A stretch of 63,613 nt of DNA, the filler included. It is 5 parts of 5 records of this genome, joined end to end, with 100 filler letters (N's around TTAATTAATTAA, not from the genome) between each part and the next. Parts side by side here need not be neighbours in the genome. Positions count along the whole stretch, not along the records: positions 1 to 19,972 come from SRR31156797_1039; 4 more parts are not named here. The stretch is one strand, 5' to 3'. Position 1 is the stretch's first letter. Every line of letters starts with the position of its first letter. The notes beneath the pieces are model-generated. The model ran no database searches and was not told the origin of the DNA. It worked only from the letters and a program-made list of their open reading frames with translations. This document shows positions 2,721-35,891 of this stretch, one piece after another. The position numbers and the translations under genes were made by a program.

Positions 2721-2812
2721 CTTTTCCTCACTTCATAAAAAATATGTCTCTAAATTTTTTCATTATATATAAAAAAACCATTCCAACACTAGATTAGAAT
2801 GGTTAATATTTA

Positions 2813-3115
2813 TTATTTAAAAATACGACTAAGAATAACTTCTAAGTACACTTTAAGCTCACGTAAAAACTCAATTTTGGCTTCATCCGCTTCGTCCTTA
2901 GCAGAAGCACCTGTAGAAGAAGCTAGCTCACTAACATATTTCACAGGGAGATACCAAGACAAAATGCTAGAGATAAAAAACATCGCCATATAATGTTTTT
3001 CCTCATATTCAAACTCATCAAAGTATGCTTTATATTTTATACAATCAAAATATGTCATAGCCACCGCTATCAAACAACCAACAGCATAAAAGTTAATAAT
3101 TTTTGATATCAACAT
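2813..3115 (-). CDS. small hypothetical membrane protein (~100 aa)
   Basis: ORF with SD AGAGGTG just upstream of ATG at 3115; two hydrophobic stretches; followed by a hairpin and T-run on the minus strand (~2771-2804). Confidence 0.6.
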   Translation of the reverse strand: MLISKIINFYAVGCLIAVAMTYFDCIKYKAYFDEFEYEEKHYMAMFFISSILSWYLPVKYVSELASSTGASAKDEADEAKIEFLRELKVYLEVILSRIFK

Positions 3116-3360
3116 TCGCACCTCTTTAATTTTTTATTCAAAATATAATACCATAAATAAGATAATTTTGTAAACTTATTCTTAAAATTTCTTTAATAAA
3201 TTTATCTATATTTATTTTTAGTTATCTTTTGACTAGATATAAATTTTCTTAAAATATTAACTAATGATTTTTTAATCGCTTTAAAGTATAATTAATTTGG
3301 TAATAAACACATCTTATCTACTAAACAGATAATCTTAAAAAATATATAGGGAGGTTTATC

Positions 3361-4899
3361 ATGAAAAAACATTTTTATAAAATTCTATTCTTACTATTTA
3401 CTCTATCGAGTTTAAGTTTTGCGAACTCACTCTCTACAAATATCGAACTAGATCACCCTCTCATTATTGCAAATGAAAAAAATATTATTTACGCTGTAAT
3501 TAAACTAAACGCTATAACTATCAAAGAGGAGAATATGCCGGAAAGACCTAAACTTAATCTTAGTTTAGTCATTGACAGATCAGGCTCTATGGATGAGAAG
3601 GGCAAGATGGAGTATGCTAAACAAGCAGCAAAATCACTTGTTGACTTCTTAGAAATAAAAGATATTTTATCAATAGTAGAATATGATGACCAAATTTCTG
3701 TATTATGGCCTGCTTCACCTGTTGAACGACCTAATATAGTTAAAAGCCATATCAGCGAGCTTTATCCCAGAGGTAGTACTAATCTAACAGGTGGAATGAT
3801 GGAGGGAGTAAGTGAAGTAAACAAAAATATGGATAATGAGAAATTAAATCGAGTCATTCTATTATCTGACGGATTAGCGAATATGGGGATTCAAGATCCT
3901 AATAAAATTAAAAAACTGGTTCAAAAAGCAAAAGCCGGCGGTGTAAGAATCTCTACAATGGGCCTAGGTCTTGATTATAATGAAGATTTAATGCTTGCAA
4001 TTGCAGAACATGGTGGTGGAAATTATTATTTTATAGAGAATCCTAAACAAATGAGAAGAATATTTGAACAAGAGATCAACACACTTTTTACAACTGTAGC
4101 AAAAGATATTACAATTACTTTTAACTTTTCTTCAAATATTAAATCAATTGAAACATTTGGTTATATTTCGCAAACAAAAAATAATAATCTAAATATTGAT
4201 ATAGAAAACCTCTATTCCGGTGAAAGCAGAACTATTTTAATCAGGATGGAAATTGAACCTGATAGTAAAGAGGAGTTAGAACTAGGAGAGTTTCAAATAA
4301 AATATTTTGACATAGACAAAGATTCGGATAATAGCACTATGCAAAATTTATCAGTAACAACAACCACAGATGAAACTCTCTATAAGAAATCAACTAACAA
4401 AGAAATTGAATCAGAAGCTCTATTAATAGAAGCTGACAAAAAACATGAGGAATATATAAAATTATACGAACAGGGAAATAAAGAAGATGCTATTGAAAAC
4501 ATTAAGATTTTAGAAAAAGAATTACTTGATAAAAATTCATCACTAAACAACGTAGAACTTTCTAAAAAAATCGAAGCATTGAAAATGGAAAGTGAAGAGA
4601 TCGAAGCAGCTGATGAAAGCTTTGATCAAAGACAAATATATCTAAAGAAAAGTAAACAACGTTTCTACGGAGGTAAAAAAGGTCAAAGAAGTAAGTATAT
4701 TCAACAACAAGGTATGCAAGGTTATGATATAGAAGTCTTACAAGAAGCACTGCAAAAATCCGGATTCTATAACGGTGATATTGATGGGATGTTCACAGAA
4801 GAAGTTAAAGAAGCTGTTATAGAGTTCCAACAATCAAAAGGTTTAACACCTGATGGTATTGCAGGACCAGCTACATTGAAAGCATTGGGAATTTATTAA
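3361..4899 (+). CDS. secreted VWA-domain protein with C-terminal peptidoglycan-binding (PG_binding_1) domain
   Basis: SD GGGAGG; signal peptide ending SFA; MIDAS DRSGS, LLSDG, GGGNYYF; C-terminus LQEALQKSGFY.G.IDG...FQQSKGLTPDGIAGPAT. Confidence 0.85.
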   Translation: MKKHFYKILFLLFTLSSLSFANSLSTNIELDHPLIIANEKNIIYAVIKLNAITIKEENMPERPKLNLSLVIDRSGSMDEKGKMEYAKQAAKSLVDFLEIKDILSIVEYDDQISVLWPASPVERPNIVKSHISELYPRGSTNLTGGMMEGVSEVNKNMDNEKLNRVILLSDGLANMGIQDPNKIKKLVQKAKAGGVRISTMGLGLDYNEDLMLAIAEHGGGNYYFIENPKQMRRIFEQEINTLFTTVAKDITITFNFSSNIKSIETFGYISQTKNNNLNIDIENLYSGESRTILIRMEIEPDSKEELELGEFQIKYFDIDKDSDNSTMQNLSVTTTTDETLYKKSTNKEIESEALLIEADKKHEEYIKLYEQGNKEDAIENIKILEKELLDKNSSLNNVELSKKIEALKMESEEIEAADESFDQRQIYLKKSKQRFYGGKKGQRSKYIQQQGMQGYDIEVLQEALQKSGFYNGDIDGMFTEEVKEAVIEFQQSKGLTPDGIAGPATLKALGIY

Positions 4900-4910
4900 T
4901 TTTCCAGACT

Positions 4911-4943
4911 AAAGAATCGGGTATCTTATCCGATTCTTTTTTT
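4911..4943 (+). terminator. intrinsic terminator
   Basis: AAAGAATCGG...CCGATTCTTT stem followed by a T-run. Confidence 0.8.
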
Positions 4944-5055
4944 ATTTACATTATTTTTTCTTCTAAAACTTAATAAATCTTTGAATAATTCTACCAATAT
5001 GAAGTATAATAGAATTGATGCTTAATATTTTTTATTTTTTTTAGAAAGGATTTTT

Positions 5056-6147
5056 ATGAAGAAACAATTAATCATATTATTTATGCTCACATTCTCGCTA
5101 ATCTCTTTAGGAAAAATAAATATCTCATTTATAAATCCCGGCAGATCAGACGAAACATTTTGGGTGATGGTGTCAGAGTTTATGAAAGCCTCTGCTGAAG
5201 ACCTTGAAATTGAACTTGAGGTAATTTATGCTGAGCGTAACTTTTTAAGCGCTGTAACTATTATGAGGGAACTTGTAAGCAGAGATAATAAGCCTGATTA
5301 TGTTGTGATTGTTAACGAAAAACTTATTGCCCCCAGACTATTAAAAATTTCCGAAGAAGAGAATATAAAAACATTTATGATATTAAATGATCTTACACCA
5401 GAGCAAAAATTAGAAGAGGGAATACCGAGAGTAAAACATAAAAACTGGCTTGGAAGTTTGATCCCAAATAATGACGACGCAGGTTATATGATCGCTGATT
5501 CTCTAATTAAAAAAGCTAATGAAGTAAAAGGCAAGGGAATTCAAAATATGATTGCCATAGCAGGAAATAGAGTTACCCCTGCTTCTGTTCAGAGAGTAGA
5601 TGGATTACGAAGAGCTATTAATGAGAACTCAAATGTTAACCTACTACAAATATTATATGCAGAATGGAATGAAAATGAAGCATATATTATGACTAATGGA
5701 ATGCTAAATAGATATGACAAGATTGACATGATCTGGGCTATAAATGACCCGACAGCATTCGGAGCTATAAAAGCTATCGAAGAGGAAAATAAAGTGCCGG
5801 GTAAGGATATCCTAATCAGTGGCTTAAACTGGTCAAATGACGCCATTAAGAAGATTAAAGATGGAAAGATGCTTAGTACTATTGGAGGACATTTCATGGT
5901 AGGTGGCTGGTCAATGGTTATACTCCGAGATTATCATGAAGGAATTGATTTCATAAGTGATGAGAAAACTACAAAATTAGAAGTAAATGTATTTGGGATT
6001 ATCGATTCATCAAACGCTGATAATTATATTAATAATTTTGGTGATTCAAATTGGAGTAAAATTGATTTTAGATATTTTTCTAAGCATTATAACAATAATC
6101 TTGATAACTATGACTTTAGTTTGGATAGGATATTAGAGCAATTTTAA
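5056..6147 (+). CDS. periplasmic substrate-binding protein, type 1 (RbsB/LacI-like fold), with no permease nearby
   Basis: N-terminal signal; INPG..ETFW, IWAINDPTAFGA, GKDILISG, GGHF motifs of sugar-binding-like PBPs. Confidence 0.8.
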   Translation: MKKQLIILFMLTFSLISLGKINISFINPGRSDETFWVMVSEFMKASAEDLEIELEVIYAERNFLSAVTIMRELVSRDNKPDYVVIVNEKLIAPRLLKISEEENIKTFMILNDLTPEQKLEEGIPRVKHKNWLGSLIPNNDDAGYMIADSLIKKANEVKGKGIQNMIAIAGNRVTPASVQRVDGLRRAINENSNVNLLQILYAEWNENEAYIMTNGMLNRYDKIDMIWAINDPTAFGAIKAIEEENKVPGKDILISGLNWSNDAIKKIKDGKMLSTIGGHFMVGGWSMVILRDYHEGIDFISDEKTTKLEVNVFGIIDSSNADNYINNFGDSNWSKIDFRYFSKHYNNNLDNYDFSLDRILEQF

Positions 6148-6164
6148 ATATTATCAAAATAATA

Positions 6165-6200
6165 GAAGATGATTTCTGTGTCTACAGTGTCATCTTTTTT
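6165..6200 (+). terminator. probable intrinsic terminator
   Basis: AAGATGA...TCATCTT stem followed by a T-run. Confidence 0.55.
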
Positions 6201-6386
6201 ATTTTATCATACTATTTTCCCGCATAATTGATTAGAGTTTTTCCTATATAATTTTCATATTAAGCTATAAAATCATTTTGTGTGAAATAACCTATCAATA
6301 TAGAATAATATATTGATTTAATTCACTATTAAATATATAATTGTATGTGAAAATAAATAAGTAAGTATCAGGACTGGAGGAGCAAG

Positions 6387-9300
6387 ATGATTAAAATTTC
6401 AGGTTACAAACTCTCCGAAATAATTTATAAAGGTTGGAACTCAATCGTATATAGAGCCAAAGATATTGAAAATAATAAAAATGTTATTATAAAGGTTTTT
6501 TCGAAAGAAAAAGCTACTGGAGATGACATTGCTCGTTTCAGAAGAGAGTTCGCAATTACTGCCTCTTTTGATTACAATGGTATAATTAAGGTATTTAAAT
6601 TAGAAAACATCAATAATACTCTAGGAATTATTATGGAGGATTTTAATGGTATTTCTCTTGAGGAAATATTAGAAAAACGTAAAATTTCGCCAAAAGAGCT
6701 GTTAGAACTTTCAATATCAATTGCAAATAGTCTTGGTCATATTCATGAAAATCAAATCATACATAAAGATGTAAATTTGTCTAATATTCTATGGAATGAT
6801 ACTACTAAGCAAGTTAAAATAATTGATTTTGGAATCTCAACAGAACTATCGAGGGAAAACTTAGAAATTAAAAATCTAAACGTACTAGAAGGTTCCCTTC
6901 ATTACATTTCTCCTGAGCAAACTGGAAGAATGAATAAAACTCTTGATTATCGTACTGATTTTTATTCATTAGGTGTTACTTTTTATAAATTAATCACTGG
7001 TAAACTTCCTTTTGAAAGTAATGATACTATGGAGTTAGTTCATAGCCATATTGCAATTGAGCCTACTCCTATTATTAATATAGAGCATAATAATTGGACA
7101 AATAAAAATGAAAAAACAGCTTATAGTATGCTTTCTCAAATTATTAATAAATTAATGTCAAAAACTCCTGAAAAAAGATATCAAAGCTCATTTGGCTTGG
7201 TTCACGATTTGGAAGAGTGTCTTAAATTAGTTAATCATCAAAGCGAAATTCAAAAGCATTTTATTCCTGGAGCAAAGGATATTACTGAACGATTTCAAAT
7301 ACCTCAAAAGTTATACGGGCGTGACACAGAAATTGAATCTTTAATGAATGCATTTAATAGAATTAAAGTTGGCGGCAAAGAGTTATTGCTTGTATCAGGA
7401 CGTTCAGGCATTGGAAAATCAGCATTGATTAATGAAATACATAAACCAGTAATAGAAAAACGCGGTTACTTCATTAAAGGAAAATTTGATCAATTTAAAA
7501 GAGATATTCCATATTCTGCATTTGGAATAGCGATTTCCAAATTAATTGAGCAAATCCTCGTGAGTGATAATAGTGTTATTTCATATTGGAAAGAAAGAAT
7601 ATTGAATAAACTCGGAATTAACGGACAAATTATTATTGATATGGTTCCTGAACTTCAATTATTAATAGGAAATCAACCTCCGTTGAAAAAATTGGGTCTT
7701 GATGAGACAAGAAACCGTTTTGTTTTAACTGTACAAAATTTCGTTAGAGCATTAGGTGACCCCAAGCATCCTGTTGTAATATTCCTTGATGATTTACAAT
7801 GGGCAGATTTAGCTTCACTTAAACTGATCGAGCTAACTATAAGTGACGTAAACGTTAAAGGTTTATTAATCATCGGTGCTTATCGAGATAATGAAATTAA
7901 TGAAATCCATCCTTTAACTGACACAATTGAAGAGATAAAAAAAGAAAACAAAAGATTAAAAGAGTTAGGATTAATTAATCAAGAGCTTATTACTAATATC
8001 TTAATTGAACCTCTTAATTTTGATAATGTTCTTGAACTAACTAGTGAAACTCTGTATAGGGAGAAAGATGAAATTCAGCAATTTGCTGGACTATGTTATA
8101 AAAAAACAAATGGAAATCCGTTTTTCCTCAATCAACTATTACTAGAATTATATAGAAATAGTATTGTTAATTTTAATTACAAATCAGGTTGTTGGATATG
8201 GAATGAAAAAATGCTAACGACATATCGTATCACGGATAATGTAGTTGAATTAATGGAAGATAAAATCAAGACTCTCTCTAATAAATCACAAAATCTTATC
8301 AAGCTTGCTGCATGTGCAGGAAATAGTTTTAATTTGAATACTCTTGCAATCATTAGTAATATGAGTGCAAGAGAAACAGCTACAGATTTATGGAAAATCT
8401 TAAAGACAGGTCTTATAGAACCAAAGGATGAGAATTACAAATATATCGATATAGGAAACTCCAATGATAATCTAGAATTCAATCCAAAGTATGCTTTCAT
8501 TCATGATCGAGTTCAACAAGCTGGATATTCTATGATATCAGATAATGAAAAACAAAAAATTCATGTTAGTATAGCTAGACTTATGCTTAACGAACTAGAT
8601 ATTTCAGATAATTTTGAAATCGATAAAATTTCTAAAATTGATGATGAAATATTTGAAATAATAAATCATTTCAACAAAGGAATTAGTGTAATTAATGATC
8701 CACATGAAAAAAATATTATTTTGAAACTAAATTTAAAAGCTGGAAAAAAAGCGATGACTTCAAATGCATACAGACCTGCACTAAATTATTTCAAAACATG
8801 TTTTAAACTTCTCGAAGAGAATTATTGGTCTGAAAACTATTCTTTCACAATGAGCCTATATGTTAACGCCTTAGAAGCAGCATATTACAATTTTGATTTT
8901 GAATTAATAGACAAATTATCAAGTACTATTCTTGATAATACGAGAACTATCTTTGATGAAGTTCCAGTTTATGAAATCCTAATGAAAAGTTTTTCGGCAC
9001 AACATAAACTTGATCAAGTTGTTTTGACTGGAAGTGAAATTTTAAAAAAATTAGGTTTAACTTTACCACATAAACCAAGCAAATTACATTTATTAAAAGA
9101 ATTTTTTAAAACAAAAAAAATTCTAAAAGGAAAATCTATTGATGACTTATATAATTTACCATTAATATCAAATAAAGAAGCTCTTGCAAAATGTGATGTT
9201 TTGGGTACCATGCTTACTTCTGCATATTTTGCAAGACCAGATTTAGCACCTTTGCTTAGTTTGAAATTGATGCAGTTGGCAATTCAATTCGGGAATTATC

Positions 9301-12300
9301 CTAAATCTCATATATACCCTTTTTATGGAGCTATGAGTCTTGCGATAAGTAAAGATTATGAAACATGTTACCAATTTGGTGAACTTGGATTAAGATTATC
9401 TCAAAAGGAAGAGTTTAGAGAATCAAGAGCTAGAAATATTTTGATGTTTTATACTATGAATCATCATTGGAAAAAACCATTAAGAGAATCTGTAGAAGCT
9501 CTGCATGAAGGATTTCAAGCTGCACTGGAAGTAGGAGATTTGGAATATGCATGTTTATGTCTTCATGTGCCTGGTTATCATGGCATTCATGCAGGTTTAG
9601 AGCTTAGTGAACACGCTAAACAAATGGACCATCATAGAGAACAGATGATACATCTAAAAAATAAAACTATTCTTAAAATATTTGGTTTGAGTAGGCAGGC
9701 GGCAGCCTCATTAATGGGGGAAACTGATAACCCATATATAATCTCAGGTAAATTTTTTAGAGAAGAAACTGATATTGAACTTTGTAAAAAAGCTAATGCT
9801 AAAACTACTATAGGGGCCTTTTATCAATGGAAAATTATTCTGGGATATTTATTTGCAAAATATGATCTGGCGCTTGAAAATGATAATAATATTCAGGAAT
9901 ATAAAAAAGCTATGCTTGGTCTTGCTCATATGCCTATGAATTACTTATATTCTTCCTTGACGCGGCTTGCATTATATGAGACTGCAACAGTGAAGGAAAG
10001 AAAAAAATATTTGAAAGTGGTTCTTAAAAATCAAAAAACTTTAAAAACATGGGCAAAACACTCACCCAACAACCATCTGCATAAATGGCATTTAGTAGAA
10101 GCTGAACTGGCTAAAACCAGAGATCAGTTTAAAGATGCAATTCATCACTATGAAGCTGCAATAGAACTTGCTAGGGGAAATATGTGTTCATTGGAAGAAG
10201 CGCAAGCTTGTGAACTTTATGCTAAATTCTGGGAGAAAAATGGAAATAGCAAGTTTGAACAACTCTATATCCTGGAAGCTCATTCGACTTTTGAAAAATG
10301 GGGCGCAAAGGCTAAGAGTAAACAGCTGGAAACTCTTTACCCGGACTATTTACTTAAGGCAGAGCGTAGTAATATTGGAACAATAAATATTCCAAATACT
10401 ACATTGATAGATACAAATATTGCGTCTACTAATATTTTAGATCTATTTTCAAGTCAAAAAGCATTTCAAACTATTTCGAATGAAATAAATTTGAATAAAC
10501 TTCTTACTAAAATTATGGCAGTTGTTATCGAAAATGCCGGAGCTGAAAAAGGAGCCTTAATCTTACCAAAAGAAAAAATATGGAATATAGAAGTTATCGG
10601 AAATACTAAAACCAAAGAAAATAAATTAGTTAATAGTATTCCTTTATTTATAAATGCAAATGATAAAATTGAAGGAATAGAAAATGAAGAAAACTCTTTA
10701 ATCTCTAAAAATATTGTAAAATATGTCATAAATACTAATGATACTATCATCCTTGATAATGCTTGGAAATCAGGAAACTTTAGCAATGATAAATATATCT
10801 CCAATAATAAAGTTAAATCTGTGTTATGTATACCATTACTAAATCAAAGTGAATTAATTGCTGTTTTATATTTGGAAAACAATCTTGCTAATAGTGTTTT
10901 TACTCCTGATAGAATACAGGTTTTAAAATTACTTTCATCACAGGCAGCAATCTCAATAAAAAATGCAACTCTTTATTCTAAATTAAGGAAATCAGAAAAT
11001 AAGTTTAGAAGTATTTTTGAAAATGCAGGTGTTGGAATTTTCCAAACAACTTTAAGTGGTAAACTATTAACGGTTAATCAGGCTGGAGCGTCATTACTTA
11101 AATATAATTCCCCGTTAGAGGCAATAAATCTAATTGAAAACATGTCTGAAAACCTTTATGTTGATTCTTTCAGAAGAGAAGAGTTTGTTCAATTAGTTCA
11201 AGAAAACGGAATAGTTAAAAATTTCGAGTTTGAGTGCTGGCGTAAAGATAAAAGTATAATTACAGCATCTATCAATGCTCATTTAGTAAAAGACGAAAAG
11301 GGTGAAATTAAGTATTTAGAAGGCATCTTTGAAGATATTACGAAGAAAAAATTAGCTGATAAATATAAAATAGATAAAGAAGTGGCTGAAGCATCTACAA
11401 AAGCAAAAAGTGATTTTCTTGCCAATATGAGTCATGAAATTCGAACTCCGATGAATGCTGTTATTGGTTTATCTGAGTTAGCATTAAAGGCAGAAATCAA
11501 ACCTAAACAAAAAGACTATCTTAAAAAAATAAACAATTCTGCACAGGGTTTACTTCGAATAATTAATGAAATTCTAGATTATTCGAAAATTGAAGCTGGT
11601 AAAATGAGTATAGAAAATGTTCCTTTTACATTTAATGAGATTATGGAAACAATTGAATTTTCGATTGGATTAACTGCTTCGAAAAAAAATATTGATTTAG
11701 TATTTGATATTTCAGATGAAATCCCAGATTATCTTATTGGTGATCCAGTTAGGCTCGGACAAATATTAATCAATTTAGCAGGTAATGCTGTCAAATTTAC
11801 TGATAAAGGTAAAATTACTATATCATCTGAGATAATTGAAAATAATAACGAGTCTATAAAATTATTATTCTCAGTAAAAGATACGGGTATTGGAATGAAA
11901 GAAGAACAACTTCAAAAGTTATTCCGATCATTTCAACAAGCTGACACAACTATTAGTAGAAAATACGGTGGTACTGGATTAGGTTTAGCGATTTCAAAAC
12001 AGCTTGTTAATATGATGAATGGAACTATCAATGTTGAAAGTGAATTTGGGAAAGGAAGTCTTTTTACTTTTGAATTGAGCTTTGGTATTACAACAGAAAT
12101 CGAGACTTTAAATTTCTATAAAAATGAAAGTCCGCTACACGAATTAAATCAAATAAAAGGCGCATCTATTCTTTTGGCAGAAGATAATCCAATAAACCAA
12201 CAAATTTCTAAAGAATTTATAGAAAATATGGGGCTAAATGTTGAGATTGCTGAAAATGGTTTAGCAGCCGTTGAGAGTGTAAAAAAGAAAACTTTTGATC

Positions 12301-13196
12301 TTGTTTTAATGGATATTCAGCTTCCAGAATTAGATGGCCTCGAAGCTACAAAACTGATTCGAAAACTAGGTTTTACTAAACTACCTATTATTGCAATGAC
12401 AGCACACGCATTAAGTGAAGATAGAGAACGAAGTCTTGAAGCAGGTATGAATGCCCACCTAACAAAACCTATTGAAGCTGATAAATTACGAGAAACTCTT
12501 ATAAAATGGCTTCCAAAGATAAAAATTGAAGATAGTATATTACAAAAGGGCAAACTAAATATTGATGTCCCAGAAAATAAGAATTTTGAATTACCCGAAA
12601 TAGATGTTTTAGATATCAAGCAAGGATTAAAAAATTCTGGTGGAGTTAAGAAAAGATATCATAATTTATTGCGTGAATTCACTAAATTATATATAAATAC
12701 ACCAACTACTTTGGAAAATTTTATTAATCAGAATGATATTAGACTAGCTAAAAAAGAAGTCCATTCCTTTAGGGGTGCTGCTCAACAACTAGGAGCAAAT
12801 ATATTGGGGGATAAAGCTTTTGCGCTAGAATCAATTCTTAATTCTGATTATTCAAATGAATCTAACGAGACTTTTTTAGCTTTTAAAGAAGCGCATAATA
12901 TGCTCTTTCTAAAACTAGTAGATTTTTATAGTTTGAATTCTTTTTATCATAAAAAAGTCACTGATATAACTGAAAATAATTTAGAGAATAATTTGAGTAT
13001 ATTCAAAGAAGAAATCAATATTTTACTAGAGTTTCTGGAAACCGGAAATTCTAGAGCAGAAAAAATTGCAAATGACATTTTTACTAAGATAAATAATTCT
13101 TCTCTAAAAGAAAATTTTAAATATATTATACTTGATATAGAAAATGTTGAATTTAATAACGCTATAAAAAGAATACACAAAATCAAACACGATTAA
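6387..13196 (+). CDS. multidomain hybrid kinase: Ser/Thr kinase + AAA/STAND ATPase + helical repeats + GAF + PAS + HisKA/HATPase + REC + HPt
   Basis: HKDVNLSN/IIDFG/YISPEQTGRMN kinase motifs; GRSGIGKS Walker A and FLDDLQWAD Walker B; KSVLCIPL..LYLENN GAF; FLANMSHEIRTPMN; GGTGLGL; LMDIQLP receiver; VHSFRGAA HPt. Confidence 0.93.
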   Translation: MIKISGYKLSEIIYKGWNSIVYRAKDIENNKNVIIKVFSKEKATGDDIARFRREFAITASFDYNGIIKVFKLENINNTLGIIMEDFNGISLEEILEKRKISPKELLELSISIANSLGHIHENQIIHKDVNLSNILWNDTTKQVKIIDFGISTELSRENLEIKNLNVLEGSLHYISPEQTGRMNKTLDYRTDFYSLGVTFYKLITGKLPFESNDTMELVHSHIAIEPTPIINIEHNNWTNKNEKTAYSMLSQIINKLMSKTPEKRYQSSFGLVHDLEECLKLVNHQSEIQKHFIPGAKDITERFQIPQKLYGRDTEIESLMNAFNRIKVGGKELLLVSGRSGIGKSALINEIHKPVIEKRGYFIKGKFDQFKRDIPYSAFGIAISKLIEQILVSDNSVISYWKERILNKLGINGQIIIDMVPELQLLIGNQPPLKKLGLDETRNRFVLTVQNFVRALGDPKHPVVIFLDDLQWADLASLKLIELTISDVNVKGLLIIGAYRDNEINEIHPLTDTIEEIKKENKRLKELGLINQELITNILIEPLNFDNVLELTSETLYREKDEIQQFAGLCYKKTNGNPFFLNQLLLELYRNSIVNFNYKSGCWIWNEKMLTTYRITDNVVELMEDKIKTLSNKSQNLIKLAACAGNSFNLNTLAIISNMSARETATDLWKILKTGLIEPKDENYKYIDIGNSNDNLEFNPKYAFIHDRVQQAGYSMISDNEKQKIHVSIARLMLNELDISDNFEIDKISKIDDEIFEIINHFNKGISVINDPHEKNIILKLNLKAGKKAMTSNAYRPALNYFKTCFKLLEENYWSENYSFTMSLYVNALEAAYYNFDFELIDKLSSTILDNTRTIFDEVPVYEILMKSFSAQHKLDQVVLTGSEILKKLGLTLPHKPSKLHLLKEFFKTKKILKGKSIDDLYNLPLISNKEALAKCDVLGTMLTSAYFARPDLAPLLSLKLMQLAIQFGNYPKSHIYPFYGAMSLAISKDYETCYQFGELGLRLSQKEEFRESRARNILMFYTMNHHWKKPLRESVEALHEGFQAALEVGDLEYACLCLHVPGYHGIHAGLELSEHAKQMDHHREQMIHLKNKTILKIFGLSRQAAASLMGETDNPYIISGKFFREETDIELCKKANAKTTIGAFYQWKIILGYLFAKYDLALENDNNIQEYKKAMLGLAHMPMNYLYSSLTRLALYETATVKERKKYLKVVLKNQKTLKTWAKHSPNNHLHKWHLVEAELAKTRDQFKDAIHHYEAAIELARGNMCSLEEAQACELYAKFWEKNGNSKFEQLYILEAHSTFEKWGAKAKSKQLETLYPDYLLKAERSNIGTINIPNTTLIDTNIASTNILDLFSSQKAFQTISNEINLNKLLTKIMAVVIENAGAEKGALILPKEKIWNIEVIGNTKTKENKLVNSIPLFINANDKIEGIENEENSLISKNIVKYVINTNDTIILDNAWKSGNFSNDKYISNNKVKSVLCIPLLNQSELIAVLYLENNLANSVFTPDRIQVLKLLSSQAAISIKNATLYSKLRKSENKFRSIFENAGVGIFQTTLSGKLLTVNQAGASLLKYNSPLEAINLIENMSENLYVDSFRREEFVQLVQENGIVKNFEFECWRKDKSIITASINAHLVKDEKGEIKYLEGIFEDITKKKLADKYKIDKEVAEASTKAKSDFLANMSHEIRTPMNAVIGLSELALKAEIKPKQKDYLKKINNSAQGLLRIINEILDYSKIEAGKMSIENVPFTFNEIMETIEFSIGLTASKKNIDLVFDISDEIPDYLIGDPVRLGQILINLAGNAVKFTDKGKITISSEIIENNNESIKLLFSVKDTGIGMKEEQLQKLFRSFQQADTTISRKYGGTGLGLAISKQLVNMMNGTINVESEFGKGSLFTFELSFGITTEIETLNFYKNESPLHELNQIKGASILLAEDNPINQQISKEFIENMGLNVEIAENGLAAVESVKKKTFDLVLMDIQLPELDGLEATKLIRKLGFTKLPIIAMTAHALSEDRERSLEAGMNAHLTKPIEADKLRETLIKWLPKIKIEDSILQKGKLNIDVPENKNFELPEIDVLDIKQGLKNSGGVKKRYHNLLREFTKLYINTPTTLENFINQNDIRLAKKEVHSFRGAAQQLGANILGDKAFALESILNSDYSNESNETFLAFKEAHNMLFLKLVDFYSLNSFYHKKVTDITENNLENNLSIFKEEINILLEFLETGNSRAEKIANDIFTKINNSSLKENFKYIILDIENVEFNNAIKRIHKIKHD

Positions 13197-13335
13197 TAAT
13201 TTTACTCAAACTTTATGCAAATGTTCATTAATTTGTTACTTTTTATATATAATATGGCGGGTCAATGCATAATTTACTACTTTTGACACTTGACTTTTTT
13301 TACAAATCAAGTGTCTCGATCTAATAGGGGGAAAT

Positions 13336-16300
13336 ATGATTGAAACTAAGAATGACACACAAATGCACAAACTGTATGAACGACTTATTGCAATTTCAAA
13401 AGAATTCGAAAAAGATAAATTCAAGAAAGAAATTGTAGATTCAATAACTGGAATTGTCAATATTAGGATTAAAAACTACTCTAAAGGAATATTAGTCATA
13501 ATTAAAGATCAAAAAATTAACATTCATAAAGATTATGAAAAAGAACCAGAACTTAATAGTTCCATTGTAGTATTCAATTCGAGCGATGATCTTAAAAACT
13601 TTTTATCAGATAACGATACTAATCAAGCAATAAATATGTATACTGAGGGCAATCCTGCTCATTTTGCATATTTTAATTATTTACTAAATGCTATCGCATT
13701 TAATACTCGTAAAGATGAATTTGAGAAAAAAATTAAGGCAGATGCTATTCGCAAATTTGATTATAGTACTAACACTGGAAAACCAGAAAGAGATATGCGA
13801 AATTCTAGAATAAGCGGAAGACTTCAAGCTGACAAAGTTGATGAAGGTGTTAAATATTTAAATGATCCTTATCTTTCTGAATACACTATTGAAAATTTCC
13901 CAAGACTTATGAAATTCAAAGAAGATTATATACATAAAACACCTAAAATAACCGCTGAATACGGTGAACTTCTAACAGATTTTTATCTTAATTCAACTGA
14001 CAAAACTAATAATAAATACTACATAAACCCTGAAACAAATAAACCATGGAATCCTTTATTACGATCAGCTTCCGCTTTTAATTATGTAATGAAAAATAAA
14101 AAGCCAATTATACGAGATGGTGATCTTCTTGCAGGAACAATGACGCCAGACAAAATTTGCGGAAGTGTAGGACAGCCATATACTATAGGATGGAAAATTT
14201 GGGGAGATTTAAAGTTAATTGACATTAGAGAAAACGATCGATTTAGTATTGAAGAAACAACTAAAGAGATTCTTCATAGAAAAGTTTTTCCGTTCTGGAT
14301 GGATAAACATGTCGAAGCTATTTGGAAAACAAAAGTTGATAGAGATTCTTCGTATCTAAAAATATTTAACCGGAATTTCTTCACGATTCCTTGGGGACTA
14401 GTTTCAATTAATCCTAGCTCTCCCGGACTTGATACCGTTATAAAAAGAGGGCTAAAAGGTATCAGAGAGGATATCTATGCTAAAATCACTGAAGTAGAAA
14501 AACAAAGTGACAGTGATGACACAGAGGATAAATTAGCAAATCTAAAGGCAATGGAAAAAGTCATTATTGGAATTTCTGAATATAGTGAACATCTAAAAAA
14601 TCATATTAATGAAATCCGTTATGGTATCATTAACGAAAAGGATATAAAAGAAGAGGATAAAAAACAAAGAGAAAAAGAAATTGATGAAATTTATAAAGTT
14701 TTATGTAACGTTCCTGAGAAACCTGCTGAGACTCTTCATGAAGCAATACAAACATTATGGATTATGTTCATTGGTATTGGATTAGATAGTATGGATGATT
14801 CTTTATCAGTTGGTAGGCTTGATCAAATTCTACAACCTTATTTTGAAGCTGATATTAAAAAAATATTAGCTGATGGAAATAAAAATATCGAAGACTATAT
14901 AGAAAATGCTATTGAGCTTATCGGATGTTTCTTTATGAGATTAAACAGTCATAGATTAGCAGCAGATACGCAAACAAGTGAACAAAATTCCGGCGCTCCT
15001 GCCGTTTCTTCAATAGTTGTTGGTGGTATTAGCCGAGATGGAAAAGATGCCGTTAATGATATGACATATATCATATTGAAAGTTGCTGAAATGTTATGTA
15101 CAGATGACCCTGATATGGATGCTAGATATTCAGACAAAGTAAATAGTGACACATACTTGAAGAGATTATGTGAAGTTAATTACCTGACTGGTGGTTCTCC
15201 TGCTATTCATAACGATACACAGGTGATTAAAGGATGGAAAGAGAATAATCCTGACTGGCCAATTGAGGATTTAAGAGATTGGGTACCGTGTGGTTGTGTC
15301 GAACCTGTTATCTACGGAAAACACCTTGCTGCTCCCGGGGATTTAGATAGTTGTTTAGTTGTTCCTTTAGAAATGGCTCTTAACAACGGTAGATATCCAA
15401 GCTGGCCGGATGAAAAATTGGGTCCTGAAACCGGAGAAGTTATTTCATTTAAATCATTTGATGATTTTCTTGCTGCTTTTAAAAAGCAATTCATTTTCTT
15501 ATATGAAAATGCTATCAAAGATGGTTCGCATAAAATACTTGAAGCTCAAAAACAAGCTATGCCTTCTCCTCTTTTTTCTCTATTAACTGAGGGATGTCTG
15601 GATAAATCAAAAGGTGTACTTGATGGAGCTGCGAAATATAATACAGCAGGAGCTTCATTAATCGGACTTTCTGATGTGATAGATTCATTACTCGCTATCA
15701 AGCACTTTGTATTTTCAGAAAAAATTGATGAAAACTCTAAAAATATAAAATTTGAGCAACTAAAATCGGCTATTGACGATAATTATGATAGTTTTGAAGG
15801 AAGAAAAGTTTATAAACAAGTAAGATACGATGCTCCAAAATTTGGATCAAATAGCACAGAAGCTAGAGAAATGGCTAACAAAATTTTACATATGGTTAGT
15901 GACTATCTACATGATGATCAACCTTTAGAAATTGAACGTGAAAGAAGAATAATCAGAGGTGGTAAGTATACATCTGGATATAGAACTAATAGTAATCATG
16001 TTTTCTTCGGTTCTATTACTGGTGCTCTCCCATCTGGTAGAAGAGCTGGTGAGCCGTTTACATCTGGACTAACACCTAGTCCGTCAGCTTCAACAAATAT
16101 AGTTGATAATTTAATCGATGTAGCAGCACTTAACCCAGCACATACAGAGAATAGTTTTTCATTTAACGTTCGAATTTCTTTTTCCCACCTACATACTCAT
16201 AAAGAGAAAGTTGATATTATGTCTGATTACTTAAAAGCTTTCTTTGAAAAAGGCGGAATGCAGGTTCAACTGAATATGGTTGATACTGAAACTCTAGTAG

Positions 16301-16428
16301 ATGCAATGGCAAATCCAAAAAAATATCCTGATTTAATTGTAAGAATCTCTGGATATACTGGTTACTATACTAGGCTTAATACAGCTCTTCAATTAGAAAT
16401 AATTAAGAGAACCCAGTTTTCTATTTAA
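13336..16428 (+). CDS. glycyl radical enzyme (PFL-like family) with ~130-aa N-terminal extension; substrate unknown
   Basis: C-terminal glycyl loop LIVRISGY; Cys loop CGCVEP; GRLDQ, GGMQVQLN, LPSGRRAGEP motifs. Confidence 0.9.
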   Translation: MIETKNDTQMHKLYERLIAISKEFEKDKFKKEIVDSITGIVNIRIKNYSKGILVIIKDQKINIHKDYEKEPELNSSIVVFNSSDDLKNFLSDNDTNQAINMYTEGNPAHFAYFNYLLNAIAFNTRKDEFEKKIKADAIRKFDYSTNTGKPERDMRNSRISGRLQADKVDEGVKYLNDPYLSEYTIENFPRLMKFKEDYIHKTPKITAEYGELLTDFYLNSTDKTNNKYYINPETNKPWNPLLRSASAFNYVMKNKKPIIRDGDLLAGTMTPDKICGSVGQPYTIGWKIWGDLKLIDIRENDRFSIEETTKEILHRKVFPFWMDKHVEAIWKTKVDRDSSYLKIFNRNFFTIPWGLVSINPSSPGLDTVIKRGLKGIREDIYAKITEVEKQSDSDDTEDKLANLKAMEKVIIGISEYSEHLKNHINEIRYGIINEKDIKEEDKKQREKEIDEIYKVLCNVPEKPAETLHEAIQTLWIMFIGIGLDSMDDSLSVGRLDQILQPYFEADIKKILADGNKNIEDYIENAIELIGCFFMRLNSHRLAADTQTSEQNSGAPAVSSIVVGGISRDGKDAVNDMTYIILKVAEMLCTDDPDMDARYSDKVNSDTYLKRLCEVNYLTGGSPAIHNDTQVIKGWKENNPDWPIEDLRDWVPCGCVEPVIYGKHLAAPGDLDSCLVVPLEMALNNGRYPSWPDEKLGPETGEVISFKSFDDFLAAFKKQFIFLYENAIKDGSHKILEAQKQAMPSPLFSLLTEGCLDKSKGVLDGAAKYNTAGASLIGLSDVIDSLLAIKHFVFSEKIDENSKNIKFEQLKSAIDDNYDSFEGRKVYKQVRYDAPKFGSNSTEAREMANKILHMVSDYLHDDQPLEIERERRIIRGGKYTSGYRTNSNHVFFGSITGALPSGRRAGEPFTSGLTPSPSASTNIVDNLIDVAALNPAHTENSFSFNVRISFSHLHTHKEKVDIMSDYLKAFFEKGGMQVQLNMVDTETLVDAMANPKKYPDLIVRISGYTGYYTRLNTALQLEIIKRTQFSI

Positions 16429-16447
16429 AATTTATTATAATTTTTTC

Positions 16448-16475
16448 TTGACTTTTATTTTTAATGTGGTAGAAT
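16448..16475 (+). promoter_or_regulatory. sigma70-type promoter for the aro leader
   Basis: TTGACT (16448-16453), 16-nt spacer, extended -10 TG-n-TAGAAT (16467-16475). Confidence 0.7.
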
Positions 16476-16536
16476 CCTCATAAGAAATAAAACTAATAGA
16501 TTTAGATTTTAATTAATTGAAAAAGGAGGCACAACA

Positions 16537-16641
16537 ATGAATTCAGTAAGATTTACTTGGTGGTATTATTATAATGAAAACTTCAACCAATCAAATATAA
16601 ATGAATCGGGTTTATTCATTGTAATGCCAAGTATCAATTGA
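16537..16641 (+). CDS. aromatic amino acid leader peptide (34 aa, MNSVRFTWWYYYNENFNQSNINESGLFIVMPSIN)
   Basis: Strong SD AAGGAGG at 16523-16529; run of F-T-W-W-Y-Y-Y codons; lies directly upstream of DAHP synthase and of two terminators; too short for the ORF track. Confidence 0.85.
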   Translation: MNSVRFTWWYYYNENFNQSNINESGLFIVMPSIN

Positions 16642-16709
16642 TAATTTGATACTAATAATTAATTAAACACATAATTTTGTAATATAATTTTAGTTTGTGT
16701 ATAGAGTTT

Positions 16710-16738
16710 AAACCTGTTCTTAATGAACAGGTTTTTTT
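16710..16738 (+). terminator. attenuator terminator 1 in the aro leader
   Basis: AAACCTGTTC-ttaat-GAACAGGTTT followed by a T-run. Confidence 0.85.
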
Positions 16739-16766
16739 ATTTCCCAAACAATATCAGTGTAGTTGT

Positions 16767-16817
16767 AAGCCGATTCAATGTGAAAGTATTTAACTTTCCG
16801 TAGAATCGGCTTTTTTT
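16767..16817 (+). terminator. attenuator terminator 2 in the aro leader
   Basis: AAGCCGATTC...GAATCGGCTT outer stem, inner GAAAG/CTTTC pairing, then a 7-T run. Confidence 0.75.
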
Positions 16818-16855
16818 ATTAATAAATAATTTAAAATTTTATAGAGGTGATTAAG

Positions 16856-17872
16856 ATGGTAGTAAAAATGAGAGAAAATAGTGAAAGAGTGGATATTGAA
16901 AAGGTAATCGAGAGAGCAGCAAAATTTAACTGTAATGTACATGAATCACAAATGGAAGAGATAATAGTACTGCATATTCATGGTGATACGAGCAAAGTTA
17001 CTATGCAGGAATTTGAAGAGTTATCAAATGTAGAAAAAGTAATGAGAATACAGGAACCATTTAAAAAAGCAAATAGAAAATCACATCCTGCTGATTCAGT
17101 AATTGAAGTAGGGGACATCAAAATCGGTGGTGGCAGCTTCGTAGTAATGGCAGGGCCTTGCTCAGTAGAATCAGAGGATCAAATAAATGAAGTAGCTGAT
17201 GCAGTGAAAAGCTCAGGTGCACAAGTTTTACGAGGGGGAGCATTTAAGCCAAGAACATCTCCATACGCATTTCAGGGAATGGAGCTTGAGGGGCTTGATT
17301 TACTTAAGAAAGCGAGAAATAAAACAGGACTTCCAATTGTTACTGAGATTATGTCTGTTGATATGATCGATAAATTCGTAGAAGAGGTTGATATAATTCA
17401 AGTTGGCGCTAGAAATATGCAGAATTTTCATCTGTTAAAAGAGTTAGGAAAAACTAATAAACCTATCTTACTAAAGAGAGGAATGTCAGCAACTATTCAG
17501 GAATTAATAATGTCGGCTGAATACATTATGGCAGGCGGAAATAATAATGTTATATTATGTGAAAGAGGTATAAGAACATTTGAAACTTTCACAAGAAATA
17601 CTCTTGACCTAAGTGCTGTTCCTGCAATCAAGGAATTAACGCACCTACCTATCATAATAGATCCAAGTCATGCAACCGGTAAGAGATCAATGGTGGATTC
17701 ATTAGCTAAAGCAGCAGCGGCAGTTGGTGCAGATGGACTAATGATAGAAGTACACAATGATCCGGAGAATGCTTTATGCGACGGTCCGCAATCTCTTCGA
17801 CCAGAAGAGTTTGATAAAGTTATGCAGGGAGTTGGGCAAATATTACCAATAGTTGGAAAGCAGATGGCTTAA
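16856..17872 (+). CDS. aroF: 3-deoxy-7-phosphoheptulonate (DAHP) synthase, type I-beta with N-terminal regulatory domain
   Basis: [47 protein letters not shown] motifs; SD AGAGGTG before ATG 16856. Confidence 0.95.
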
Positions 17873-17882
17873 AAATAAAATC

Positions 17883-17908
17883 AGGGCGTATGCTCAAACA
17901 TACGCCCT
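17883..17908. terminator. terminator hairpin between convergent aroF and oppF
   Basis: Perfect 10-bp stem AGGGCGTATG/CATACGCCCT flanked by A/T runs. Confidence 0.8.
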
Positions 17909-17915
17909 AAAAAAA

Positions 17916-18926
17916 TTATATCTCTTTATATCTAAAACAGCTAACTTCATGACCATCAGAAACAGTTTCCATTTGAGGTTCAATTTCTGTTTTGCATATA
18001 TCTGTTGCAAATGGACATCTTGTATGAAATCTACATCCCGGAGGTATCTCTGAAGCAGAAGGAATTTCTCCTTTTATATTCACTTCTTTAAACTTATTAA
18101 CTTTTCCAGCTTTTGTTTCGCATACAGCTTGGATTAGCGCCTTAGTATATGGATGTTTGGGATTATCAATCACTTCATCCGGAGTACCAATCTCCACTAT
18201 TTTCCCCAGATACATGACAGCTATTCTATCTGTAAAATATCTGGCAGTAGACAGATCATGAGTTATATATAAATATGTTAAATTTAACTCTTGCTGCAGT
18301 TCTTTAAACATTTGCAGTATTTCAGCTTTTGTTGACAGATCAATCATTGATACAGGTTCATCGGCTACTAATAGTTTCGGTGACAGTATAAGCGCTCTGG
18401 CAGTAGCCGCCCTCTGTCTTTGACCACCTGATAACATATGTGGGTATCGATCAATAAATTCATCTACAGGAGTTAATTTTACATCTGTTAAAGCTTGCTT
18501 AATTAAGTCATATCGTTTCTTTCTATCAGCTTCGATTTTATGAATAAGAAGAGCCTCTTCCAGAACGTTTTTTATTTTAAATCTGGGATTCATTGAGGCA
18601 TATGGATCTTGAAATATCATCTGAACTTCTTCTCGATATTTTGCTGTTCTTTCTTTATCAACTTTTGTTACATTTTCGCCATTAAAATATATATCGCCAT
18701 CTGTTGCTTCATGAAGTTTCATTATAAGTCTGGCAGTAGTTGATTTACCGCAACCTGATTCACCTATCAGGCCCAAAACTTCACCTCTTTTGATTTCAAA
18801 TGAAATGCCGTCAACAGCTCGAACAAATTTATGTTCTCCTTTGATTACTTCTGTTATATTTCTTCTAATAGGAAACCACTTCTTTAAATTTTTAACTTCT
18901 ATTAAAGTCTCATTATTATTTCTCAT
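17916..18926 (-). CDS. oppF: oligopeptide/dipeptide ABC transporter ATP-binding protein (OppF-like)
   Basis: GESGCGKS, LSGGQRQR, ADEP, HPYT, GCRFHTRC C-terminal motif; exact start uncertain (18926-18953). Confidence 0.9.
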   Translation of the reverse strand: MRNNNETLIEVKNLKKWFPIRRNITEVIKGEHKFVRAVDGISFEIKRGEVLGLIGESGCGKSTTARLIMKLHEATDGDIYFNGENVTKVDKERTAKYREEVQMIFQDPYASMNPRFKIKNVLEEALLIHKIEADRKKRYDLIKQALTDVKLTPVDEFIDRYPHMLSGGQRQRAATARALILSPKLLVADEPVSMIDLSTKAEILQMFKELQQELNLTYLYITHDLSTARYFTDRIAVMYLGKIVEIGTPDEVIDNPKHPYTKALIQAVCETKAGKVNKFKEVNIKGEIPSASEIPPGCRFHTRCPFATDICKTEIEPQMETVSDGHEVSCFRYKEI

Positions 18927-19896
18927 CCTCATAACACCTCCAGCATGCAACAAAATGTTCTTTCTCTAACTCTTTTAATGGAGGTATTTTTTCCTTACAA
19001 ATATCCATCGCAACATCACATCTGGGATGAAATCTGCATCCACTAGGAGGTTCAAGTAAATCCGGTGGCGTTCCCGGGATAAACTCCAGTTTTTCAACTT
19101 TTTCATGAAGTTTCGGTGTTGCAGCGAGAAGTTTTTTTGTATATGGATGCATAGGCCCTTGTTCACCATAAATTTGAGTATTAGTTCCTATCTCTGCAAT
19201 TTTACCTGCATACATTACACATATTCTATCTGCTACTTCAGCCTCAGCTGCGAGATCATGAGTAATGAATATAAATGATAGTTTCAGCTTTTCTTTCAGG
19301 TCTTTTAGCAAATTAATTATTTGAGCCTGTACAACTACATCAAGGGCAGTTGTTGGTTCATCACAAATAATAATTTTCGGCTCTAAAAAAAGCGCTAAAG
19401 CAATTACAACTCTTTGTTTTTGACCTCCTGATAATTCATGCGGATATCTTTTTAGAATATCAGAACTTAAACCTACATATTCAAGATATTTAATCATTAT
19501 CTCTTTTGCTTCTTTTTTCTTTATTCCTTTATGTTTTTTCAAGGTTTCATACATCTGCTTCTCAATAGTAAATACAGGTGTCATAGAGTTCATCGCACCC
19601 TGAAAAACCATAGATATTTTTTTCCATCTGACTTGATTCCGCATCTCTTTCTCATTAAGTTCCGTTATATCCAGTCCGTCAACTATAATCTGCCCGTCAA
19701 CTATCTCACCTGGAGGTGCCGGCATCTTAATAAGTGAAAACCCTGTTGTAGTTTTACCACAGCCTGATTCTCCTACCAAGCCAAGTGTTTCACCTTCATA
19801 AAGATAAAAACTGATATCATCTACAGCTTTTACACTTCCCTTATCGATATGATAATACATCTTTAAATTTTTAACGTCTAATATTTTATTTTTCAT
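18916..19896 (-). CDS. oppD: oligopeptide/dipeptide ABC transporter ATP-binding protein (OppD-like)
   Basis: GESGCGKT, YPHELSGGQKQR, DEPTTALDV, GCRFHPRC. Confidence 0.9.
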   Translation of the reverse strand: MKNKILDVKNLKMYYHIDKGSVKAVDDISFYLYEGETLGLVGESGCGKTTTGFSLIKMPAPPGEIVDGQIIVDGLDITELNEKEMRNQVRWKKISMVFQGAMNSMTPVFTIEKQMYETLKKHKGIKKKEAKEIMIKYLEYVGLSSDILKRYPHELSGGQKQRVVIALALFLEPKIIICDEPTTALDVVVQAQIINLLKDLKEKLKLSFIFITHDLAAEAEVADRICVMYAGKIAEIGTNTQIYGEQGPMHPYTKKLLAATPKLHEKVEKLEFIPGTPPDLLEPPSGCRFHPRCDVAMDICKEKIPPLKELEKEHFVACWRCYEDEK

Positions 19897-19972
19897 AAAT
19901 TTCACCATTTTCTTATTCTGTTTAAAATTTAAAACATTACAAACCTTGCCTACGCGGCAAACTGCGCGAACC

Positions 19973-20072
19973 NNNNNNNNNNNNNNNNNNNNNNNNNNNN
20001 NNNNNNNNNNNNNNNNTTAATTAATTAANNNNNNNNNNNNNNNNNNNNNNNNNNNNNNNNNNNNNNNNNNNN
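19973..20072. other. artificial contig linker (N run + TTAATTAATTAA six-frame stop)
   Basis: Identical 100-nt construct occurs four times in the window. Confidence 0.98.
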
Positions 20073-35791: not shown

Positions 35792-35891
35792 NNNNNNNNN
35801 NNNNNNNNNNNNNNNNNNNNNNNNNNNNNNNNNNNTTAATTAATTAANNNNNNNNNNNNNNNNNNNNNNNNNNNNNNNNNNNNNNNNNNNN
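35792..35891. other. artificial contig linker
   Basis: N run + TTAATTAATTAA. Confidence 0.98.

Follow-up and report, generated by a model that had tools for sequence, protein, structure and literature searches.

A probable ribosome-mediated attenuator with tryptophan and tyrosine codons ahead of aroF, and its likeness to a Trp-leader family of Fusobacteriota

The window analysed here is a stretch of 63,613 nucleotides (nt) made of several contigs joined by spacers of N, and the subject of this work is the leader region of aroF on the first contig (positions 1-19972), where a promoter-like site, a short open reading frame (ORF) rich in aromatic codons and two terminator-like hairpins precede the gene (Table 1). 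The aroF product scores above the cut-offs of NF006421 and TIGR01361, matches PF00793 and PF18152 in Pfam, and has 4grs and 1rzm as its nearest solved chains; a preliminary description of the locus, made from the letters alone, was thus right in placing the leader directly upstream of a DAHP synthase, which is of type Iβ. The gene is solitary, in that no aro gene follows it, and a hairpin separates it from a convergent oppF-like gene. In a quick tree of 170 proteins the AroF of the window groups with 34 other rows (SH-aLRT 94, under the starred level of the tool), which are Fusobacteriota wherever the phylum is known and include five metagenome contigs; on these sequences, the host of the contig is probably a member of the Fusobacteriota. 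The oppF-like neighbour gave no lineage answer, standing at 71% to one Fusobacteriota genome and at 70% to an Oceanotoga protein.

The preliminary description had named the promoter, a Shine-Dalgarno (SD) sequence AAGGAGG, the 34-codon frame and the run FTWWYYY at codons 6-12, and all four were recovered at the positions of Table 1; a second phenylalanine (Phe, F) codon of the leader is F16. By itself the promoter-like site is weak evidence, as ten sites of equal quality were found against 6.4 expected in shuffles; its TTGAC is invariant across eight aligned leaders. The run of Phe, tryptophan (Trp, W) and tyrosine (Tyr, Y) codons exceeds chance: among 2000 dinucleotide-type shuffles of the sequence between the genes, one yielded an SD-led upstream ORF (uORF) with at least 6 F/W/Y in 8 codons, and when five long ORFs of the contig were scanned seven residues at a time, none of the 4506 windows held 5 or more aromatic residues. 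The leader ORF matched no Pfam or NCBIfam family, and no Rfam family reached its gathering score in the window. The earlier failure to find a T-box here was borne out, since RF00230 is absent from the eight Rfam matches at E up to 10 in 16300-16950.

What the preliminary description did not contain are the two U-tailed hairpins, T1 and T2, and a strand within the uORF, AUGAAUCGGGUUUA, that can pair with the 5' arm of either (-11.2 kcal/mol with T1 and -13.7 kcal/mol with T2). The uORF extends 27 nt beyond this antiterminator strand. The helix in which a following strand pairs with the SD end and start codon is specific to its partner, at -16.5 kcal/mol vs a non-cognate mean of -5.6 kcal/mol, with none of 36 non-cognate pairings equally good. 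It resembles the re-initiation shut-off of enteric leaders.

Table 1. Features of the aroF locus and of the window (positions count along the whole window).
Feature	Position	Strand	Basis
Sigma-70-type promoter-like site, -35 TTGACT, spacing 16, extended -10 TG-n-TAGAAT	16448-16475	+	10/12 matches
Shine-Dalgarno AAGGAGG of leader ORF, 7 nt ahead of ATG	16523-16529	+	sequence
Leader ORF, 34 codons, MNSVRFTWWYYY...	16537-16641	+	translation
Control codons F-T-W-W-Y-Y-Y (codons 6-12, TTT ACT TGG TGG TAT TAT TAT)	16552-16572	+	sequence
1:2 helix (family); control-codon part can pair with 16605-16611	16555-16561	+	-5.6 kcal/mol in window
Left shoulder of hairpin P1; pairs with ~16607-16626, covers antiterminator core	16565-16581	+	duplex -12.2 kcal/mol
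Antiterminator strand AUGAAUCGGGUUUA, inside uORF, complementary to 5' arms of T1 and T2	16601-16614	+	duplexes, alignment
Strand pairing with 16528-16542 (SD end and start codon), putative re-initiation block	16614-16628	+	-16.5 kcal/mol
Spacer hairpin spanning leader stop codon	16630-16653	+	-8.0 kcal/mol
Terminator T1, 10-bp stem and U tract	16710-16738	+	-12.9 kcal/mol
Terminator T2, 10-bp outer stem, inner helices, U tract	16767-16817	+	-22.8 kcal/mol
aroF, type Iβ DAHP synthase with N-terminal ferredoxin-like regulatory domain	16856-17872	+	NCBIfam/Pfam profiles, solved chains
Hairpin between aroF and convergent oppF-like gene, putative terminator	17884-17915	.	-17.2 kcal/mol
N spacers between contigs	19973-20072, 35792-35891, 45675-45774, 58187-58286

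A comparison of aroF upstream regions, a check named in the preliminary description, was carried out on 80 genome and 80 metagenome loci with AroF relatives; with the window added these gave 136 non-redundant loci with 450 nt upstream, 101 of them with a gap of at least 150 nt, and 182 other genes of the same loci as well as shuffles served as controls. An SD-led uORF with at least 6 F/W/Y in 8 codons precedes 44 of the 101 aroF genes and none of the 182 control genes (0.0004 of shuffles); for at least 5 the counts are 54/101 vs 1/182 (0.006 of shuffles), and for at least 4 they are 68/101 vs 5/182 (0.034 of shuffles). The sole control positive at the middle threshold precedes a gene that may be aroB. 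The codon run is thus conserved in relatives, and it is frame-specific: in the best 8-codon windows of 91 leaders, which were chosen on frame 0, the counts in frames 0/+1/+2 are 243/5/30 for Tyr, 31/2/6 for Trp and 237/118/92 for Phe, the Phe codons being less frame-specific than the other two. Both Tyr codons are in use there (TAT 138, TAC 105). By content, 54 of the 91 leaders hold F+Y, 36 hold F+W+Y and one holds F only, and a U-tailed hairpin lies ahead of aroF in 83. Leader length ranges from 16 to 57 amino acids (aa), and the sequence past the aromatic run varies freely; across eight Psychrilyobacter-type leaders the variable codons are 4 synonymous vs 2 non-synonymous.

Among the 30 best Fusobacteriota aroF loci, 29 could be scored, and 18 of these carry a leader while 11 do not. 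The view in the preliminary description that the mechanism would be unusual in this lineage finds no support in these counts; Clostridia have such leaders too. A contig of a second organism (sequencing run X1) differs from the window at 7 positions in 96 nt of leader (16534-16629) vs 20 in 101 nt of aroF, and its T1 3' arm is exact; the four listed leader differences fall in codons 15 and 21, none is listed in codons 10-14, and three near the piece ends are unlisted. Run X1 may itself be where the DNA of the window comes from, and so lends no independent support to the window sequence. Another sequencing run, X2, covers 16300-16515 only.

Several further features of aroF leaders were seen along the way (loci are numbered with L). 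In Clostridium/Romboutsia (L001, L005, L009, L013, L017, L019-L024) the leaders are 38-57 aa long with an FSWG(Y/F) core, a recurring AUGAGU strand matches a terminator arm, and the genomes are T-box-rich. In L085 the leader reads FRYCY, a Trp codon having become a Cys codon, which could be retuning or decay. The leaderless aroF copies L162, L164, L176 and L178-L180 each have, by group, their own conserved AT-rich upstream region, which suggests that a DNA-binding protein may control them; L162 heads a run that, judged by N-termini, is presumably aroF-tyrA-aroA-aroC-like. A link between a Trp codon in the leader and trpA in the genome (22/27 with W, 16/33 without, Fisher p 0.015) was set aside on account of kinship, incomplete genomes and the isolate counter-examples L009, L013 and L021.

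The closest likeness of the window leader was found elsewhere. When the window leader was compared at DNA level with 190 Fusobacteriota genomes, the matches fell chiefly in its terminator region, and seven loci found in this way, independently of the later pattern search, carry uORFs that start M..RFTWWW, ahead of trpE or the gene of an ABC binding protein. We define these leaders and their relatives here as the RFTWWW family. A 16-nt pattern derived from the window matched 78 of the 190 genomes (about 115 matches), and 68 regions were retrieved, with priority for exact matches; 43 of the 101 distinct pattern matches in all fetched loci lie in SD-led uORFs, namely 38 in Fusobacteriota, the window itself and four Bacillota frames, which were judged to be chance and dropped. 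The RFTWW pattern matched 55 of 401 Bacillota genomes, and the 30 loci fetched from these held no credible leader. The genes after the 38 Fusobacteriota members are trpE (12), trpS (5) and those of ABC binding proteins or others (21); a hidden Markov model check of seven loci gave trpE in L206 (above cut-off) and L250 (below), trpS in L258, and the TrpX-like NF041285, below cut-off, in L192, L251, L256 and L282.

The window leader aligns end to end with this family and shares with it the RFTWW core, a strand like AUCAGGUUU (to which AUGAAUCGGGUUUA aligns), a T1 with a CCUG core, T2 and the start-codon helix; it has neither the third Trp codon nor a Trp-specific downstream gene. The CCTG core of T1 is invariant in 22 aligned family leaders. 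Of the 39 members including the window, all have an SD and an in-frame start, and 32 have two hairpins; the seven with a single hairpin are five trpS leaders and two WWC variants. The other 38 are W-only; the window leader is the sole member seen with WWYYY and the sole one seen ahead of aroF, with TAT TAT TAT (Y10-12) in place of W-Q/K-N, and it is longer than any relative. A change in its strand lets 8 contiguous pairs form with T2. When a model was made from 24 members, the window being left out, its best match in the 63.6 kb was at 16543-16738 (38.7 bits, E 9e-4, with a high composition bias of 28.8), a score comparable to the 31-36 bits of the leaders of trpS and of Psychrilyobacter aroF and far short of the 96-135 bits that held-out core members reach. 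Rfam, including Trp_leader and Phe_leader, gave no match in the window or in 11 RFTWWW-type loci. In the consensus fold the Thr-Trp codons pair with the antiterminator strand (the 1:2 helix, 96.8% of cells paired), the T2 stem carries changes on both sides, and in 19 of 37 members the start-codon helix is specific to its own partner (mean -12.6 vs -7.8). The simplest reading of these alignments is that the window leader would be a Trp leader that was recruited to aroF and retuned. A different history, with T2 newly gained and the first hairpin decayed from a Psychrilyobacter-type leader, was dropped, as the closer RFTWWW family has both T1 and T2.

The family shows some variety of its own. Psychrilyobacter-type genomes (L206 on the minus strand, L262/L263, L264/L265) have RFTWWW leaders before trpE and before trpS, and between trpA and aroF-tyrA they have a further, separate leader, FRYWY, under a promoter of its own, which makes three attenuators in one regulon. 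The transporter leaders L191, L192, L240 and L247-L249 hold two CAGG copies in the uORF, unlike the window, and T1 and T2 may there each have an antiterminator module of their own. In L282 and L283 the run reads WWC, with a Cys codon for a Trp codon; retuning and decay are both possible.

In the folding models the ribosome footprint was masked and truncated transcripts were folded with a program that cannot draw pseudoknots. When the RNA 5' of the ribosome was kept from pairing (the barred mode), stalls from codon 8 to codon 16 gave pairing of the strand with T1 at 0.97 and later with T2 at 0.98, while a stall at F6 gave 0.05 for T1 and a ribosome past codon 25 gave 0. With the SD-to-ribosome stretch alone barred, pairing with T2 reached 0.94-1.0 (0.99 at F16), and a stall at F6 gave 0.00 for T1 and 0.00-0.12 for T2. 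Over 33 non-redundant family members, the strand pairs with T1 at more than 0.5 in none when naked, in 4 with the ribosome at the stop and in 14 (unbarred) or 32 (barred) with a stall at the first Trp codon; for T2, over 27 members, the counts are 0, 3, 8 and 20, the barred mode having been run on stalled states only. In the barred mode a stall at F opens T1 in 27 of 33 other members. The strand could also pair with T1 and T2 at once in a nested fold, which is 12 kcal/mol worse than pairing with T2 while T1 is refolded.

We consider it likely that aroF stands under a ribosome-mediated transcription attenuator that belongs to, or derives from, the Fusobacteriota RFTWWW family and has been retuned to Trp and Tyr. 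That the leader is an attenuator at all is highly probable, that Trp and Tyr are both sensed is fairly probable, and that one strand controls both terminators we hold slightly more probable than the contrary; a clear response to Phe as well is doubtful. Complementarity and geometry are plain in the sequence; the following switch, together with its inputs and its order of T1 and then T2, we infer. When charged tRNA-Trp and tRNA-Tyr are ample, the ribosome would cross the antiterminator strand and depart, P1 and the start-codon helix would then conceal the strand, and polymerase would stop at T1 or, failing that, at T2. When Trp or Tyr is short, the ribosome would stall at codons 8-12 and cover P1 on its left shoulder. 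The strand, now free, could take the 5' arm of T1 as its first partner and exchange it for the stronger 5' arm of T2 once polymerase is beyond T1, so that aroF would be transcribed. An input from Phe would be weak or absent and act through the single codon F16, because F6 belongs to the shared RFTWW core and a modelled stall there does not open T1.

A number of observations weigh against this account. The nearest AroF relatives, L162 and L164, have no leader, and in the aroF leaders at large the upstream strand outdid shuffled arms in just 20 of 79. Within the RFTWWW family, which was enlarged with a pattern from the window leader, the conservation of RFTWW is partly built in. Compared with 77 other Fusobacteriota terminators as controls, the cognate pairing of the strand is in the best 10% in 23 of 39 members for T1 and in 14 of 32 for T2 (window 0.052 and 0.000), which speaks for the account; but these counts are not independent, since members are related, and that for T1 is flattered by the removal of control arms identical to the family T1 type. 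Terminators of the ACCUGU type also occur at ordinary gene ends (L207, L209). The 1:2 helix and the pairing of strand and T1 are conserved and show no covariation above shuffles (110/500 and 500/500). The models, too, depend on what is barred: with only the SD-to-ribosome stretch withheld, pairing with T1 stood at 0.2-0.5 for stalls at W9-Y12 and at 0.6-0.7 for F16, and with nothing barred behind the ribosome the antiterminator was absent from the window leader (0.00) because the start-codon helix wins, a pseudoknot in which the two could coexist being beyond the program, and only 14 of 33 members (T1) and 8 of 27 (T2) switch. A work-around for the pseudoknot, in which both strands of the start-codon helix were withdrawn, gave antitermination in every state, even with no ribosome, and was set aside as non-discriminating.

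The preliminary description had proposed ribosome-stalling attenuation that integrates Phe, Trp and Tyr supply. Its attenuator half, as against a T-box, is upheld by the conserved codon run, the terminators, the competing strand and the lack of a T-box match, but a single attenuator answering to all three about equally seems unlikely to us. All three codon types do lie within codons 6-12, the modelled stall at F16 opens both terminators, F, W and Y occur together near the run in the 36 leaders mentioned above, and a stall at F opens T1 in most other family members when the upstream RNA is barred; moreover, the aroR leader of Corynebacterium glutamicum owes its Phe control to one motif with two Phe codons (PMC11802643). 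Yet F6 is equally present in Trp-only trpE and trpS leaders, where sensing Phe has no evident use, its stall gives just 0.00-0.05 for T1 in the window, 55 of the 91 aroF leaders have no W, so that the triple is not a rule of the family, and aroR ignores Tyr despite a Tyr codon (PMC11802643). The opposite view, that a Trp attenuator was captured along with its promoter and that its Tyr codons are there by accident or the element is in decay, with T2 (or T1) constitutive, fits with the W-only codons of the 38 relatives, with the unusual length and weak 1:2 helix (-5.6) of the window leader, and with its absence from the closest AroF relatives. We regard it as improbable, as three TAT codons replace W-Q/K-N exactly where a stalled ribosome must cover the RNA, the strand change gives the 8 contiguous pairs with T2, and the second organism conserves the leader more than aroF, codons 10-14 showing no listed difference (three of seven differences being unlisted).

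Two other explanations take the peptide out of the switch. An RNA switch controlled by a ligand, as in the 'trpB motif' riboswitch candidate, or by a TRAP/PyrR-like protein, the uORF being a by-product, would agree with the pairing that partly constrains the WW sequence. Narunsky et al. (PMC11109978) indeed rate as a strong riboswitch candidate a motif that Firmicutes and Fusobacteria carry ahead of trpB and of ABC transporter genes and whose P1 holds an antiterminator in its right shoulder. We nevertheless find such a switch quite improbable here: SD and in-frame start are kept in all 39 members, Tyr and Trp are enriched in one frame, synonymous changes outnumber non-synonymous ones (4 vs 2) in the eight Psychrilyobacter-type leaders, and the codons track the downstream gene, with WWW before trp genes and WWYYY before aroF. 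Least probable by far is a small functional peptide, or a chance ORF ahead of constitutive terminators; there is a hydrophobic N-terminal run, and promoter-like sites are common in AT-rich DNA, but the leaders differ freely in length (16-57 aa) and in sequence beyond the aromatic run, the occurrence is confined to aroF and trp-related genes, and chance accounts for 1 in 2000.

Upstream of the aroF promoter, and with no clear terminator in between, lies the gene of a 1030-aa glycyl radical enzyme (13336-16428) with an N-terminal extension of ~190 aa ahead of its PFL-like domain; it scores below the cut-off of every named NCBIfam family, and no activating enzyme for it is among the ORFs listed on contig 1-19972. 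Before it comes a 2269-aa ORF (6387-13196), whose translation by eye resembles a Ser/Thr kinase-ATPase-GAF-PAS hybrid histidine kinase, and which adjoins the gene of a periplasmic binding protein (5056-6147). The contigs after the first spacer look Bacteroidota-like and Campylobacterota-like by eye, and the spacers separate unrelated contigs.

Leader control of DAHP synthase has, as far as we found, one tested organism (C. glutamicum) and a prediction in Acholeplasma; among the loci compared here it is common in both Clostridia and Fusobacteriota, groups for which T-boxes are generally assumed or no mechanism has been described. The series of WWW before trp genes and WWYYY or FRYWY before aroF offers a natural case for how attenuators change their amino-acid specificity, and the RFTWWW family lets one ask whether two terminators with a shared antiterminator sharpen the response. 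Neither aroF or trp leader peptides of Fusobacteriota or clostridia nor one antiterminator serving tandem terminators was found described in the full-text literature, most subscription papers and supplements lying outside the search; the RFTWWW family is apparently undescribed, unless it is the 'trpB motif'. Tentatively, and at somewhat less than even likelihood, we put forward a wider picture, in which the Trp regulon of Fusobacteriota (trpE operon, trpS, TrpX-like transporters) would be run by an undescribed portable attenuator whose one strand opens two terminators in succession as a double filter and whose covarying helix closes off the start of the uORF following a single round; in the window it would have moved to aroF, WWW becoming WWYYY, and would answer to Trp and Tyr, perhaps to Phe, and the 'trpB motif' would at least partly be a peptide attenuator, not a riboswitch.

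That motif (SRC-39-1) is an orphan riboswitch candidate of Firmicutes and Fusobacteria (Narunsky et al. 2024, PMC11109978). Judged by its text description, it resembles the RFTWWW family in taxa, in its context of trpB and amino-acid ABC transporters, in a P1 with the antiterminator in the right shoulder and in its terminator; it differs in that no uORF belongs to the description. An SD-led uORF rich in Trp or in Tyr/Phe within the 'trpB motif' alignment would bear on its candidacy as a riboswitch. We think it rather unlikely that the two are identical: in Bacilli the TrpX-like genes have either T-boxes or another leader, rich in F/Y, genome 39 seems to be a Streptococcus, with uORFC-39-1 being Streptococcus-only, and the motif may instead be this other leader family. 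The F/Y-rich uORFs (…YFFSYFR, …YYYYYYFPRR) stand before TrpX-like genes in L326 (1230-1454), L317, L319, L330, L331, L334, L340, L342 and L343; in L326, RF02863 ('Enterococcus sRNA 2410') overlaps the uORF end and the terminator, and this sRNA may be an attenuated leader.

The class of mechanism proposed here is decades old, leaders that respond to several amino acids, such as thrL and ilvGL, are textbook knowledge, and Vitreschak et al. 2004 reportedly list proteobacterial attenuators. T-boxes (RF00230) likewise sense amino-acid supply, through tRNA, and control a terminator, and in Bacillota they are frequent ahead of aromatic genes; three Bacillota genomes gave 40, 26 and 16 matches and two Fusobacteriota genomes one sub-threshold match and none. 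An aroF element has been predicted in Shewanella with reference to a 1980 E. coli hypothesis, no leader sequence being seen in the accessible text (PMC2659441). The leader-peptide idea for aroF is already in print. For Acholeplasma, Brewer et al. 2021 (PMC8632094) predict an aroF uORF, uORFC-13-1; compared by function only, it too has an SD, one or more Phe codons and a terminator and lies upstream of aroF only, but it comprises 24 sequences from Acholeplasma alone, with a Phe run and one terminator described. The aroR-aroF attenuator of C. glutamicum (Neshat et al. 2014) has an F-Y-F leader that responds to Phe and, in spite of its Tyr codon, not to Tyr (PMC11802643, PMC4046766), so that codons alone are no proof of sensing. 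It shares with the window leader the mixed aromatic codons in a leader peptide before a DAHP synthase gene and, as proposed here, attenuation by ribosome stalling, a likeness of function only; it belongs to the Actinomycetota and reads F-Y-F, whereas the window leader reads WWYYY, has two terminators and is probably from Fusobacteriota. With the trpL/pheL/thrL class of E. coli the window leader shares control codons that can pair with and so hide the antiterminator strand and an intrinsic terminator before the first gene; it differs from that class in a uORF that runs 27 nt past the antiterminator, in the lack of an Rfam leader match, and in two serial terminators that would share one strand.

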